Below, one piece after another: positions 19,610 to 29,285 of a stretch of 64,000 bases of DNA. The stretch lies in the NCBI RefSeq assembly GCF_001677475.2, contig NZ_CP015229.1; one strand, 5' to 3'. The notes beneath the pieces were generated by a model. That model was given only the letters and a program-made list of their open reading frames with translations. It was not told the DNA's origin and did not search any database. A program made the position numbers and the translations under genes. Source of the stretch: Escherichia coli. GTDB taxonomy: Bacteria; Pseudomonadota; Gammaproteobacteria; Enterobacterales; Enterobacteriaceae. Each line of letters begins with the position of its first letter. Position 1 is the stretch's first letter.

Positions 19610-20986
19610 GTGAAAAACGCGTCAACCGTATCGGAAGATACTGCGTCGAATCAAGAGCCGACGCTTCATCGCGGATTACATAACCGTCATATTCAACTGA
19701 TTGCGCTGGGTGGCGCAATTGGTACTGGTCTGTTTCTTGGCATTGGCCCGGCGATTCAGATGGCGGGTCCGGCTGTATTGCTGGGCTACGGCGTCGCCGG
19801 GATCATCGCTTTCCTGATTATGCGCCAGCTTGGCGAAATGGTGGTTGAGGAGCCGGTATCCGGTTCATTTGCCCACTTTGCCTATAAATACTGGGGACCG
19901 TTTGCGGGCTTCCTCTCTGGCTGGAACTACTGGGTAATGTTCGTGCTGGTGGGAATGGCAGAGCTGACCGCTGCGGGCATCTATATGCAGTACTGGTTCC
20001 CGGATGTTCCAACGTGGATTTGGGCTGCCGCCTTCTTTATTATCATCAACGCCGTTAACCTGGTGAACGTGCGCTTATATGGCGAAACCGAGTTCTGGTT
20101 TGCGCTGATTAAAGTGCTGGCGATCATCGGTATGATCGGCTTTGGCCTGTGGCTGCTGTTTTCTGGTCACGGCGGCGAGAAAGCCAGTATCGACAACCTC
20201 TGGCGCTACGGTGGTTTCTTCGCCACCGGCTGGAATGGGCTGATTTTGTCGCTGGCGGTAATTATGTTCTCCTTCGGCGGTCTGGAGCTGATTGGGATTA
20301 CAGCCGCTGAAGCGCGCGATCCGGAAAAAAGCATCCCGAAAGCAGTGAATCAGGTGGTGTATCGCATCCTGCTGTTTTATATCGGTTCACTGGTGGTTTT
20401 ACTGGCACTCTATCCGTGGGTGGAAGTGAAATCTAACAGTAGCCCGTTTGTGATGATTTTCCATAATCTCGACAGCAACGTGGTAGCTTCTGCGCTGAAC
20501 TTCGTCATTCTGGTAGCATCGCTGTCAGTGTATAACAGCGGGGTTTACTCTAACAGCCGCATGCTGTTTGGCCTTTCTGTGCAGGGTAATGCGCCGAAGT
20601 TTTTGACTCGCGTCAGCCGTCGCGGCGTGCCGATTAACTCGCTGATGCTTTCCGGAGCGATCACTTCGCTGGTGGTGTTAATCAACTATCTGCTGCCGCA
20701 AAAAGCGTTTGGTCTGCTGATGGCGCTGGTGGTAGCAACGCTGCTGTTGAACTGGATTATGATCTGTCTGGCGCATCTGCGTTTTCGTGCAGCGATGCGA
20801 CGTCAGGGGCGTGAAACACAGTTTAAGGCGCTGCTCTATCCGTTCGGCAACTATCTTTGCATCGCCTTCCTCGCCATGATTTTGCTGCTGATGTGCACGA
20901 TGGATGATATGCGCTTGTCAGCGATTCTGCTGCCGGTGTGGATTGTATTCCTGTTTGTGGCGTTTAAAACGCTGCGTCGGAAATAA
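19610..20986 (+). CDS. pheP: Phenylalanine-specific permease PheP
   Basis: GTG start at 19610 with aggggaaagg RBS; N-terminus VKNASTVSEDTASNQ matches recalled PheP; 458 aa; track ORF starts 36 nt upstream. Confidence 0.9.
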   Translation: MKNASTVSEDTASNQEPTLHRGLHNRHIQLIALGGAIGTGLFLGIGPAIQMAGPAVLLGYGVAGIIAFLIMRQLGEMVVEEPVSGSFAHFAYKYWGPFAGFLSGWNYWVMFVLVGMAELTAAGIYMQYWFPDVPTWIWAAAFFIIINAVNLVNVRLYGETEFWFALIKVLAIIGMIGFGLWLLFSGHGGEKASIDNLWRYGGFFATGWNGLILSLAVIMFSFGGLELIGITAAEARDPEKSIPKAVNQVVYRILLFYIGSLVVLLALYPWVEVKSNSSPFVMIFHNLDSNVVASALNFVILVASLSVYNSGVYSNSRMLFGLSVQGNAPKFLTRVSRRGVPINSLMLSGAITSLVVLINYLLPQKAFGLLMALVVATLLLNWIMICLAHLRFRAAMRRQGRETQFKALLYPFGNYLCIAFLAMILLLMCTMDDMRLSAILLPVWIVFLFVAFKTLRRK

Positions 20987-21017
20987 GGCATTCACGCTAC
21001 ATCCGACAAAACGATGT

Positions 21018-21051
21018 CCGCTCTCATCCATTCGATGAGAGCGGTTTTTTT
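21018..21051 (+). terminator. Rho-independent terminator after pheP
   Basis: Stem ccgctctcatc / gatgagagcgg followed by ttttttt, immediately after pheP stop and abutting convergent ybdG. Confidence 0.6.
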
Positions 21052-25030: not shown

Positions 25031-25472
25031 TTATGTTGGCGTTTTCTATTCAGTATAGAAGTGGGAGCGACTGGGCGAGATGCGGAAGTTCTGGAATGTT
25101 TCTTTTTTTGGTGATGGTGAACTGATTGTGACTGAAGAAGTTTGGCTACTTTTGCAATGTGACAAGTTATGGCAGAGCTGGCTGGTGGCGAAGAATTTTG
25201 ACGATTGAGGCATGCAGAAAAAAACGGGTTCAGCTTCAGTTGATCAAATGAGGAGTGAGAAGTCTGAAACAGGACTAACTGTATAAATAAACAGCTATTT
25301 TGCTGAGGAAGGGTAAGATAACGGCGGGTGCCTGAAGCTTTCCGGTTTCAGGTTTACTCTGAGGTCTGGAAAGATGAAGCCCCAGGAGATATTTCTATCA
25401 ACCCTGGGGCTGCCACTCCAAACCCGAACAATTTGGATGGTAGTCCCTTCTTCGCATGGAGGCAATATAAAC

Positions 25473-25625
25473 ATGCTGACGAAATATGCCCTTGTGGCAG
25501 TCATAGTGCTGTGTTTGACGGTACTGGGATTTACGCTTCTGGTCGGAGACTCGCTGTGTGAGTTTACGGTGAAGGAACGTAATATTGAGTTTAAGGCTGT
25601 TCTCGCTTACGAACCGAAGAAGTAG
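25473..25625 (+). CDS. hokE: Hok-family membrane toxin, copy 1
   Basis: ATG at 25473; 50 aa [50 protein letters not shown], typical Hok single-TM toxin. Confidence 0.85.
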
Positions 25626-25876
25626 CCGTTGTGCGGGGAGTAATCCCCGCATATCCGGTTGTCAGGTCAGGGTGGTAAGGCACCTGCTTTACACTTTCGC
25701 CCGCGGTCAGCAATGGCTGCGGGCGATGTCGTTTTAAGGGCAATGATCAGTTTTGCCAACAGAAGTCCGAAACAGGATTCACTGTATAAATAAACAGCTA
25801 TTTTGCTGAGGAAGGGTAAGATAACGGCGGGTGCCTGAAGCTTTCCGGTTTCAGGTTAACTCTGAGGTCTGGAAAG

Positions 25877-26065
25877 ATGAAGCCCCAGGATGATATTTCT
25901 ATCAACCCTGGGGCTACCTACCCAAACCTGAACAATTTGGATGGTAGTCCCTTCTTCGCATGGAGGCAATATAAACATGCTGACGAAATATGCCCTTGTG
26001 GCAGTCATAGTGCTGTGTTTAACGGTGCTGGGATTTACGCTTCTGGTCGGAGACTCGCTGTGTGA
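25877..26065 (+). CDS. mok-like overlapping reading frame, copy 2
   Basis: 62-codon ORF ([12 protein letters not shown]...) starting upstream of and overlapping hok copy 2 in a different frame, the arrangement of mok in hok/sok systems; assignment rests on arrangement only. Confidence 0.45.
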
Positions 26066-26250: not shown

Positions 26251-26871
26251 TTAATCGTGTTGGCACAGCGTTATGACTATTTTTTCTTTTATCTGCCAGT
26301 GCACAGCAAACTGCTCATCCTCTAGTCGAATGATGATCTGCTGTTTATTCCAGCTAATTATCTGATAATCCAGAAAACCTTGAGCGGCCTGTATCTTGCT
26401 TGCCTTAAATGCGCTCTCTTTGGCGGAAAATGCCAGTGTCAGCGCCAGAGAAAAGGTTAAACCGCATTCTGCGAGTCGCTCGTGTTCTGCTGGTGTAATA
26501 ATGTTGTCTGTCAATTCTCTTGCGGTTTGTACAGAGAAAATCTCTTCGATATCAATGCCAATCGGTTGACGAGTTACCACGGCTAATGCCGTAGCCCCAC
26601 AGTGGCTAATACTGCCGTATACCTCCGCAGGCCACACAGGTTGGCGTAGCTCGCCGATTGCGGGCACACATTTATAGCCATATTCCCGCAGCGCATAAAC
26701 TGCAGCGATCCGTCCGGCTAAATGCTCTGTTTTACGTTTACGTCCAGCGTGTTGCAGTTGTGCGTAGTGCGGCAGCCAGAGTAAATCCTGCTCGCGAAAA
26801 CTCGCCGGATCAAACTCAACAAAATGCAGCGTATGTCCTGCAAAGGGGAGGGAGGTATGCGTAGTTTTCAT
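26251..26871 (-). CDS. entD: Enterobactin synthase 4'-phosphopantetheinyl transferase EntD
   Basis: Start trimmed to MKTTHTSLPFAGHTLHF (cat at 26869..26871); 206 aa. Confidence 0.9.
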   Translation of the reverse strand: MKTTHTSLPFAGHTLHFVEFDPASFREQDLLWLPHYAQLQHAGRKRKTEHLAGRIAAVYALREYGYKCVPAIGELRQPVWPAEVYGSISHCGATALAVVTRQPIGIDIEEIFSVQTARELTDNIITPAEHERLAECGLTFSLALTLAFSAKESAFKASKIQAAQGFLDYQIISWNKQQIIIRLEDEQFAVHWQIKEKIVITLCQHD

Positions 26872-26908
26872 GTCGACCATATTAGAGAATGATGACAAAC
26901 GCAAAACT

Positions 26909-27006
26909 GCCTGATGCGCTACGCTTATCAGGCCTACGTGGTCCTGCAATATATTGAATTGGCAAGATTTTGTAGGCCGGATAAGGCGTTCACGCCGCAT
27001 CCGGCA
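26909..27006. repeat. REP/BIME element (two inverted REP units) between entD and fepA
   Basis: gcctgatgcgctacgcttatcaggcctac ... tgtaggccggataaggcgttcacgccgcatccggca; classic enterobacterial REP sequences. Confidence 0.75.
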
Positions 27007-27044
27007 TGAACGACGCGCACTTTGTCAACAATCTGACGTTAGCA

Positions 27045-29285
27045 TCAGAAGTGAGTATTAACGCTCATATACCACGTACGTCCCGGCTCGTTATAGGTAT
27101 ACGCCCCGGCACCTGCGATATAGTTGGCTCCTGCCAGATCGCCCGTGGTCTGGGCATTGCCCGCACGCCACAAACGCTTATCGAATAGGTTGTCCACGCC
27201 GCCGGTCAGACTGACATTCTTCGTCACATCCCAGGTCGCGCTCAGGCCAACAATGCTGTAAGGACTAATTTCTTTGGTTTCCGGTCCAACCGCTGGCTGG
27301 CCTTTATAGTTGTACTTCTTCGGCTGCTGCTTGCCGTACCAGGTGAAGGTCGTTTGCATCGACAAATCTTCCCGTGCCTGCCAGCTCAGCGTTGAGTTCA
27401 ACGTATACTCCGGGATGATCGACAAACGGTCGCCCGTGGTTTTGTTTTCACTCTTCAGCATATAAGTGATGTTATTGGTCCACATCACCGTTTCGCTAAC
27501 CGGTACGTTTAACGATCCTTCCAGGCCTTCAACCACTGCTTTCGGCACGTTATCCCACTGATAGAGATCGGTGCCGACTGCGTTTTGTCCTACAGCCACA
27601 TAGCCCGCTTCAATCTTATTGCGATAATCGTTACGGAACCATGTGACGCCCGCCAGCCAGCCGTCGCGTTTGAACTCCAGACCAATCTCTTTGTTGATAC
27701 TGGTTTCCGCTTTCAGGTCATCGTTCCCTTGCAGATAGCAGCCGCCCGCGCTGGCATAGCAGCCCTGACCTTTACTGTAGAGAATGTAGTTCGGGTTAGT
27801 CTGGTACAGGCTCGGCGCTTTATAGGCGCGGGCAATGCCCATTTTCAGCGTGAAGTCATCGCCTAAACCTTGCGATATGTTCAGCGCCGGGCTCCAGTTA
27901 TTGCCGACAATACTGTGATGATCGAAACGCAGCCCCGGCGTTACGATGGTGCTGTCAGTCAGCTCCATGTTGTTTTCGGCAAACAGCGAGAAAATTTCTG
28001 CTTTTGAATACGGGCTACGGTCGGTGGCACTCACGCCATCAATAGCGCCACCGGTATTCGTTCCGGTCAGTGCCTGGGTGTTGGAACTTAAGTCCTTCAT
28101 CCGTTGCTGATTCCACTCCGTACCCAGCGTCAGCGTTTGGTTAACGAGGAAATCAATCGGCAGGTTAACTTCGCTGTGCAGCATCACGTCATCAAGATCG
28201 ATATCGACGAAATCCTGTGTCGCTTTTTCGTTAAATTTCCCTTCGGTACCACCCGCCAGACCTTCCGGAATACGCGAGTTACGGGTGTGTTCGTACTGCA
28301 CCCAGTTGCTGGTGGTCACGCCGTTATCCCAGCCACCGTTCCAGGTCAGCGAGTAGTTCTGGCGATACAGGCGGTTGGTTTCATCGCCATATTTCGAGCG
28401 AGTGTAAGCGTCAGAGTTGGTGTTCTGGGTATCGCCCGCATACAGGTTACCCTGGCGGCTGTAACCCGCTTCCAGTTCGAGTGATTGCAGAGGCGCGAAG
28501 TCCCAGCGCACCACGCCATTAATATCTTTGTTGATCACCCCTTCGCGCCCGGCTGGTAACGTCGTGGCATACGTTCCGGCACGCGCGGACTGATGACCCT
28601 GGTTGATATCCCACGCGTCAGCCTGGGTTTTGTCGAGGTTGCCATACAAGCGGAAGCTGAATTCGTCGCCCAGCGGACCGGTCAGGCTGAAGTTGGTGCG
28701 TTTAGTGGCACCTTCCTCTTTATGTTCTGGCGCATTGAAATAAGCGTCCCAGGAGCCGTGCCACTCACCGCTGCCTTTTTTGGTAATGATGTTAACCACG
28801 CCGCCCGCCGCGCCGTTGCCGTAACGCGCAGCTGCCGGACCACGCAGAACTTCAATACGTTCAATCATTTCAGGTGGCACCCAGGAAGTATCACCACGGG
28901 TATCGCGCTCTCCACGCCAGCCCTGACGCACCGAGTTACGGCTGCTGACCGGTTTGCCGTCAATTAAAATCAGCGTGTTTTCCGGACCCATGCCGCGAAT
29001 ATCAATCTGGCGGTTATTACCACGCTGACCACTGGTGGAGTTACCGGTCAGGTTAACGCCTGGCATGGTACGGATAATCTCCGACACATCGCGGGCAACC
29101 GGGTTTTTGCGGATTTCATCTGCGGTGATGGTCGAAACGCCAGGCGCCTGCAAGTTCTGCTCGGCGGCGGTAACGACAATAGTATCGTCATGTGAAACAG
29201 GAGTATCGGTCGGCTCTTGTGCCTGCGCTACCCCATAAATCCCCAGATTGACCAACAAGGCCAGGGAATGAATCTTCTTGTTCAT
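27045..29285 (-). CDS. fepA: TonB-dependent ferric enterobactin outer membrane receptor FepA
   Basis: Start trimmed to MNKKIHSLALLVNLGIYGVAQA (cat at 29283..29285); C-terminal ...YMSVNTHF. Confidence 0.95.
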   Translation of the reverse strand: MNKKIHSLALLVNLGIYGVAQAQEPTDTPVSHDDTIVVTAAEQNLQAPGVSTITADEIRKNPVARDVSEIIRTMPGVNLTGNSTSGQRGNNRQIDIRGMGPENTLILIDGKPVSSRNSVRQGWRGERDTRGDTSWVPPEMIERIEVLRGPAAARYGNGAAGGVVNIITKKGSGEWHGSWDAYFNAPEHKEEGATKRTNFSLTGPLGDEFSFRLYGNLDKTQADAWDINQGHQSARAGTYATTLPAGREGVINKDINGVVRWDFAPLQSLELEAGYSRQGNLYAGDTQNTNSDAYTRSKYGDETNRLYRQNYSLTWNGGWDNGVTTSNWVQYEHTRNSRIPEGLAGGTEGKFNEKATQDFVDIDLDDVMLHSEVNLPIDFLVNQTLTLGTEWNQQRMKDLSSNTQALTGTNTGGAIDGVSATDRSPYSKAEIFSLFAENNMELTDSTIVTPGLRFDHHSIVGNNWSPALNISQGLGDDFTLKMGIARAYKAPSLYQTNPNYILYSKGQGCYASAGGCYLQGNDDLKAETSINKEIGLEFKRDGWLAGVTWFRNDYRNKIEAGYVAVGQNAVGTDLYQWDNVPKAVVEGLEGSLNVPVSETVMWTNNITYMLKSENKTTGDRLSIIPEYTLNSTLSWQAREDLSMQTTFTWYGKQQPKKYNYKGQPAVGPETKEISPYSIVGLSATWDVTKNVSLTGGVDNLFDKRLWRAGNAQTTGDLAGANYIAGAGAYTYNEPGRTWYMSVNTHF

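Follow-up and report, generated by a model that had tools for sequence, protein, structure and literature searches.

The spacer between fepA and entD in the window, by which we mean the whole 64,000-nt stretch of Escherichia coli DNA that was analyzed, holds a single BIME-1 (RIP/RIB) element, which belongs to the REP family of dispersed Escherichia repeats. This identification is close to certain: every sequence property of BIME-1 that could be tested was found in the element, as judged from its letters and its paralogs. The type of element, its size and its presence or absence among isolates have been described before, and the K-12 site is known to hold the same element. Taken as a whole, the explanation we favor, and consider probable, is that the BIME-1 lies within an operon where it has replaced a GC-rich hairpin, and that it may act as a structured 3′ barrier in the mRNA with possible attenuation ahead of entD.

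The gene context defines where the element sits. The upstream gene is fepA (746 aa; 27045–29285, minus strand), recognized from its translation, an NCBIfam FepA family match of 1281 bits and the K-12 annotation. The downstream gene is entD (206 aa; 26251–26871, minus strand), recognized from its translation, a match of 424.8 bits to the NCBIfam EntD equivalog and the 621-nt gene annotated in K-12. K-12 has the same arrangement, with entD at 609459–610079 and fepA at 610254–612494, both on the minus strand, and fes divergent. The fepA and entD genes are described as one Fur-regulated operon (PMC10763504, PMC4676285). Because both genes lie on the minus strand, the element lies past the 3′ end of fepA and ahead of the 5′ end of entD and is intercistronic; from the observed gene order and the co-transcription given in those papers, it is within the fepA–entD mRNA. 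The sequence-only reading had instead described a REP pair between the 3′ ends of two convergent genes; a pair so placed would serve both ends. The presence of the REPs is the sole point in favor of that arrangement, which is refuted by the minus-strand orientation of both genes in the window and in K-12 and by the operon description, and which retains next to no likelihood.

A coding interpretation of the same DNA fares no better. A 249-aa open reading frame (26251–27000, minus strand) would be a longer EntD starting inside the Y REP; it is ATG-initiated and spans the BIME-1 unit, and gene callers often give a 247-aa ‘EntD’ (one such cluster, P0001, has 2,481 member sequences). However, the dispersed repeat itself supplies the 43 added codons, and the EntD equivalog profile of 209 positions is fully covered without them. 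The gene is annotated as 206 aa in K-12 and RefSeq, and alleles that lack the BIME are unable to encode the extension. We see practically no chance that the longer protein is real. The 249-aa frame is an annotation artefact, and over-long ‘EntD’ calls are numerous in protein databases. REPs upstream of entD were reportedly noted when the gene was first sequenced (Armstrong et al. 1989; Coderre & Earhart 1989).

Read directly, positions 26909–27006 consist of TGCCTGATGCGCTACGCTTATCAGGCCTAC, a 34-nt linker and GTAGGCCGGATAAGGCGTTCACGCCGCATCCGGCA. The left unit is a 29-nt palindromic Z1-type REP on the plus strand (26909–26937, GCCTGATGCGCTACGCTTATCAGGCCTAC) whose CTAC foot (26934–26937) is turned toward the linker. 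The right unit is a 34-nt Y-type REP on the minus strand (26972–27005, GCCGGATGCGGCGTGAACGCCTTATCCGGCCTAC, an exact pattern match) whose foot, GTAG on the plus strand (26972–26975), is also turned toward the linker. The two REPs are thus arranged tail to tail, with their feet facing one another across the linker at 26938–26971 (inverted-repeat pairs I1, I3 and I4). REP sequences are characterized by a palindrome with a conserved GTAG/CTAC tetranucleotide as its foot (PMC3333891). Both units are imperfect palindromes able to form stem-loops, as is typical of REPs of 30–40 nt, and the element is high-copy, dispersed and extragenic, lying within the 173-nt spacer between two coding sequences. The claim of two inverted REP units of a known element type is borne out. 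Against K-12 REP325, which serves as an independent reference, the Y unit agrees with the Y copies at 33 of 34 positions.

The class of the plus-strand unit follows from comparison with the same reference. Three REP types, Y, Z1 and Z2, are recognized (PMC3333891), and REP325 is composed of repeats of Y and Z2 units (PMC4550694); in K-12 its sequence includes GCCGGATGCGGCGTAAACGCCTTATCCGGCCTAC and the 36-nt GCCTGATGCGACGCTTGCGCGTCTTATCAGGCCTAC, each present five times. The plus-strand unit has its Z head and foot in common with the REP325 Z2, but its center is shorter and the Z2 center is absent. Because its center is shorter than that of the 36-nt Z2, the unit is not a Z2 and, among the three recognized types, is a Z1. 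Among the matches listed for Escherichia albertii, this 29-nt short Z form partners the linker in 15 of 17 copies.

The repeated unit extends well beyond the two REPs. The initial REP pattern strings were written with the window sequence in view, and the Z pattern was copied from it, so the test that they provide is not independent; with up to three mismatches these window-derived patterns matched 0 of 100 window shuffles. For independent references we used the K-12 REP325 units and an nhmmer profile built from E. albertii paralogs only. The paralogs come from matches to the linker pattern CTGCAATNNATTGAATT, each species being represented by one genome; most of the matches listed are chance occurrences in unrelated phyla, and the list also includes at least 17 separate E. 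albertii loci. When these loci are aligned with the window, conservation runs past both REPs, with ...AGAnTGATGACAAACGCAAAAC on the left and ATGAACAAAGCGCACTTTGTCAACAATCTGA on the right, which are mutually inverted. The profile, made from 12 of the paralogs, gives a single full-length match in the window at 26883–27037 (E=4.4e-51, model positions 4–159), and the unit therefore occupies all but 18 nt of the spacer. Its right end lies 7 nt past the fepA stop codon and its left end 11 nt ahead of the entD ATG, and these boundaries agree with those given by filled-versus-empty alignment against E. fergusonii and Citrobacter. The extent of 26909–27006 proposed earlier takes in just the core of a repeated unit of ∼155 bp; the sequence-only reading overlooked the conservation of the linker and the outer motifs, which mark the unit as a BIME-1.

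The unit as a whole is an imperfect long palindrome. The left outer motif, AGAGAATGATGACAAACGCAAAAC (26883–26908), and the right outer motif, ATGAACGACGCGCACTTTGTCAACAATCTGA (27006–27037), are kept in most paralogs, are inverted-repeat partners and pair with one another in folds of either strand; their arms (26886–26899 and 27021–27034, pair I2) are 86% complementary. The linker is conserved among paralogs and aligns with those of 17 E. albertii copies, 15 of its bases being fixed by the search pattern. It also matches Rfam RF02751 (ES036/CssrF) at 26930–26971 on the minus strand, where its 42.2 bits exceed the family's gathering score of 37.6. An IHF-consensus-like core, ATTCAATATATTG, was found by pattern matching at 26947–26959 on the minus strand, with one mismatch to the consensus WATCAANNNNTTR. 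With counts limited to 40 pieces per record, the 106-nt core of the unit occurs in at least 13–55 places per genome in all but one of 5,426 complete E. coli genomes (5,425), far beyond chance, and the repeat is thus genuinely dispersed.

BIME-1 is described as one Z1 and one Y unit with a long L linker, present as a single copy and with an IHF site in L (PMC3333891, PMC2817692), with a size of about 140 bp (PMC1187871). The fepA–entD element has one Y and one Z1 in inverse orientation without tandem repetition, a further REP foot is absent from the window, and the overall size and conserved outer motifs fit this class. In addition to these properties, it shares with other BIME-1 elements the conserved linker with its IHF-like core, a length of ∼140–155 bp, an extragenic position just past the 3′ end of a gene, and presence or absence among isolates. 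It differs in nothing essential, although this copy separates two genes of one operon instead of closing a transcription unit. BIME-2, with its tandem Y and Z2 units and short S-type linkers, was rejected as an assignment: the unit is single, its Z is not a Z2 and its linker is of the L type. Only the Y half aligns to Rfam RF02564 (naRNA4, CssrE), with 38.4 bits, below the gathering score of 59.5. Elsewhere in the window, a decayed Y-REP-like remnant, GTCGGAAATAAGGCATTCACGCTACATCCGACA, gives a weak profile match (E=0.0025) at 20975–21010, where it overlaps the end of a gene for a 470-aa permease, and is followed by a hairpin-plus-T-run terminator at 21017–21050.

Comparison with relatives indicates that the element stands in place of a simpler structure. 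The K-12 spacer carries the same BIME-1 and differs from that of the window at five positions: a 1-base length change in a T run, one linker substitution and three substitutions between the Z1 REP and the entD ATG. A 173-nt spacer with a BIME-1 is also found in Escherichia sp. E4742, Escherichia sp. E4930 and a metagenomic Escherichia-like scaffold whose EntD is 81% identical. The corresponding spacer is 49 nt long in E. fergusonii, with the GC-rich hairpin UUCCUCCCCCGAUAUUUGGGGGAGGAA, 50 nt in Citrobacter (multi-species EntD), with the GC-rich hairpin UUCCCUCUCCUCGCGACGGGGAGAGGGAA, and 68 nt in Klebsiella, also with a GC-rich hairpin; in C. rodentium the entD call overlaps fepA and a GC-rich hairpin is again present. 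The BIME-less spacers of E. fergusonii, Citrobacter, Klebsiella and E. coli GF43 span 49–68 nt, and each has a 10–14-bp GC-rich hairpin at the same position, with a sequence that differs between genera. Alignment places the BIME-1 where the hairpin would be, between the conserved flanks TGATGCTAACG... and ...TAATATGGTCGACATG.

Both alleles occur within E. coli. Among 5,426 complete genomes, 5,345 have the BIME-1 allele, with 80% or more of a 700-nt query matched, and 59 have an allele with a 26-nt hairpin that is at least 99% identical among its carriers. Because these 59 genomes do without the element, BIME-1 is dispensable at fepA–entD. PMC1187871, citing Bachellier et al. 1997, likewise describes whole BIME-1 units as present or absent among isolates. 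The view that the element is to be expected here thus holds in so far as K-12 carries it at this site, but not for the 59 genomes or E. fergusonii, where it is absent. Flank identity did not separate the alleles with respect to gain versus loss: fepA is 95–98% identical in all pairs, and the flanks of the empty allele of GF43 are no closer to E. fergusonii.

The spacer of the window is 96.0–99.4% identical to that of divergent Escherichia lineages in which the 5′ part of entD is only 83–92% identical. We also observed that, between lineages, the first 400 nt of entD are 83–92% identical, compared with 95–97% for the 3′ end of fepA and 96–99% for the spacer (window 26251–26871 versus 27045–27444; loci L125, L129 and L130). 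On sequence grounds, the divergence of entD suggests either a recombination boundary at its start or relaxed constraint on the gene. The high conservation of the spacer could come from BIME gene conversion or from the entD recombination boundary rather than from selection. For this region, the closest complete genome is that of E. coli strain 104 (L002:1947–3701; 98% identity), in which fepA is annotated as a pseudogene with an internal stop. Just downstream of entD, the window has two tandem copies of the hokE/sok toxin–antitoxin system (25326–25481 and 25829–25985, plus strand), with small open reading frames that extend to 25625 and 26129 and Rfam sok matches of 84–87 bits. At this site there is one hokE copy, followed by IS186, in K-12, three copies in strain 104 and two in E. 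fergusonii.

The spacer RNA is predicted to be strongly folded. In the mRNA sense the Y hairpin has a folding energy of −21.3 kcal/mol (z=−4.6) and the Z1 hairpin −12.9 kcal/mol (z=−2.9); the unit folds with −64 kcal/mol (z=−6.2) and the whole spacer with −72.3 kcal/mol (z=−6.3), far better than shuffled sequences. The hairpin of the empty allele, at −21.4 kcal/mol, is about equal in stability to the Y hairpin. A sequence scan of the spacer found neither a sigma-70-like promoter nor a canonical intrinsic terminator. Function as an intrinsic (Rho-independent) terminator was accordingly set aside, the scan showing no GC-rich hairpin with an immediate U run in the unit; the mRNA after Z1 reads AGUUUUGCGUUUG, a near miss to a U-run terminator. 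Liang, Rudd and Deutscher are said to have found in 2015 that a REP within ∼15 nt of a stop codon stalls translation. We also set this rule aside because the Y hairpin begins 39 nt past the fepA stop, beyond that distance. A 7-bp hairpin specific to the filled allele can form from the final bases of fepA, the fepA stop codon and the start of the BIME-1 (27025–27050, minus strand; UCUGAUG...CGUCAGA); it is probably coincidental.

The properties of REPs in other transcripts suggest what such a structure might do. Stable stem-loops that lack a U-tract, REPs among them, define mRNA 3′ ends and protect them from PNPase and RNase II (PMC6061677). REP325, between yjdM and yjdN, stabilizes the upstream gene and causes partial termination ahead of the downstream gene; where tandem genes have REPs between them, the upstream gene tends to be favored (preprint 10.64898/2026.03.23.713779). 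In our proposal, the Y hairpin and the whole folded unit would block 3′-to-5′ exonucleases in the mRNA, and this barrier would protect the fepA segment as its structured 3′ barrier. Modest Rho-dependent or structural attenuation ahead of entD may follow, and FepA would then be made in larger amounts than the catalytic EntD. In the DNA, a probable IHF site would lie in the L linker, and the unit would have arrived as mobile or selfish DNA that took the place of the hairpin. For an RNA-level role of BIME-1 at fepA–entD, we put the chances at about even.

Any polarity between the two genes appears to be mild. K-12 baseMeans are 347.6 for fepA and 67.0 for entD, a ∼1.4-fold difference per nucleotide, and the two genes change together (tables of preprint 10.64898/2026.03.23.713779). 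The ∼1.4-fold value indicates that polarity is mild at least under iron-replete growth. REP325, the source of naRNA4, resembles the fepA–entD element in placing REP units between two co-transcribed genes, and its reported upstream stabilization and partial termination are the behavior that we propose, by analogy, for fepA–entD. In contrast, the Y and Z2 units of REP325 form a six-fold tandem array, joined by short linkers and similar to BIME-2, and the yjdM/yjdN ratio in the tables of the same study is ∼35. The empty-allele hairpin and the REP hairpins share with the U-tract-less 3′-end stem-loops (PMC6061677) their stability and the absence of a following U run; the difference is that transcription of fepA–entD must go on into entD. 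Because transcription continues, the structure would mark a processed or attenuated end and not the end of the unit. By analogy, the element also resembles REPIN/RAYT (TnpA-REP) systems in being an inverted REP doublet that would constitute a mobile, non-autonomous unit.

Intercistronic REPs at malE–malF and hisJ–hisQ block 3′-to-5′ exonucleases and raise upstream over downstream expression. They are similar to the fepA–entD element in placing REP hairpins between the genes of one operon, but are REP pairs without an L linker and outer motifs.

An alternative to any role for the element in the mRNA is that a selfish or mobile BIME-1 has settled in a tolerant spacer as a neutral passenger, doing nothing specific for fepA or entD. 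The unit is present at many unrelated loci, and its presence/absence polymorphism, seen in the 59 empty genomes and described in PMC1187871, also speaks for a passenger. The ∼1.4-fold RNA ratio, these 59 hairpin-only genomes and the unremarkable IHF match make this a serious rival. On the other hand, the replaced hairpin keeps its position and strength across genera despite its different sequences, so some hairpin function seems to be required; the Y hairpin equals the replaced hairpin in stability; and, between Escherichia lineages, conservation of the spacer exceeds that of entD. On balance we regard a purely passive element as rather unlikely.

The element might also act on DNA rather than RNA, as a nucleoid or topological landmark bound by IHF at the L linker and by gyrase or Pol I at the REPs. 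An IHF site has been placed in the L linker of BIME-1 (PMC3333891, PMC2817692), and the predicted core at 26947–26959 lies in the linker. However, a one-mismatch match to the IHF consensus is 1 of 61 in the 64-kb window and is not significant by itself, gyrase enrichment is reported for BIME-2 and not for BIME-1 (PMC6379681), and the replaced element is a plain hairpin without an IHF-like site. We therefore find this explanation improbable. Even less probable, to a very marked degree, is that the linker encodes an independent small RNA of the ES036/CssrF type. The minus-strand match to RF02751 exceeds the gathering score, but that 43-nt model amounts to a consensus of the BIME-1 linker; any BIME-1 will therefore match it, and the match says little about small-RNA function. 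The scan revealed no promoter-like site in the spacer, the strand is already transcribed as fepA–entD mRNA, and a literature search for an ES036 function gave no result. Of these possibilities, a 3′ barrier in the fepA–entD mRNA remains the one that we favor.

The replacement of a hairpin at fepA–entD can be compared with the surroundings of BIME-1 at other loci. Many E. albertii copies have a locus-specific terminator-like hairpin on both sides, in the arrangement [A-tract] hairpin, BIME-1, hairpin [T-tract] (L035:4027–4181, L039:69–225, L033:6436–6589 and 4562–4719, L041:6394–6550 and L029:2628–2777; the E. coli loci in this comparison are L132, L133 and L134). At about 8 of 14 independent E. 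albertii loci, alignment of the left flank with the right gives scores of 8 to 21, compared with a mean of 5.4 (sd 1.1, maximum 11.5) for cross-locus flank controls. Comparison of filled with empty sites bears out the flanking hairpins at two loci. The metE–ysgA spacer has a single hairpin in K-12 versus hairpin, BIME-1 and hairpin in E. albertii. At yqjF–yqjG, the single hairpin of most E. coli is present twice in E. albertii and in E. coli EC42405, once on each side of a BIME-1. The BIME-1 at yqjF–yqjG has opposite orientations in EC42405 (L134) and E. albertii (L033:4562–4719) with the same duplicated hairpin, reflecting either independent insertions or inversion of a near-palindromic unit. 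At L043:1242–1929, E. albertii has four full-length BIME-1-like units in tandem, separated by the same short hairpin, ACCGACGCCAAAAGGTGTCGGT, an array that contrasts with the single-copy definition of BIME-1.

The duplicated flanks suggest hairpin-targeted insertion accompanied by duplication of the hairpin. At fepA–entD the hairpin was replaced and not duplicated. We tentatively propose, while thinking it somewhat doubtful, that BIME-1 may home to pre-existing terminator-like or protective hairpins, duplicating them or, as at fepA–entD, replacing them. If this is true, BIME-1 homing points to a hairpin-targeted insertion mechanism, and the 59 E. coli genomes with the hairpin allele would be a natural experiment on the effect of BIME-1 in an operon.

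The main use of these results lies in annotation: fepA and entD are co-directional, the element is a unit of ∼155 bp, and the 249-aa open reading frame is spurious and makes many automated EntD calls too long. The polymorphism between the BIME-1 and hairpin alleles offers a clean test of whether an intercistronic BIME-1 shifts the balance between an abundant receptor of the outer membrane and a low-abundance enzyme.
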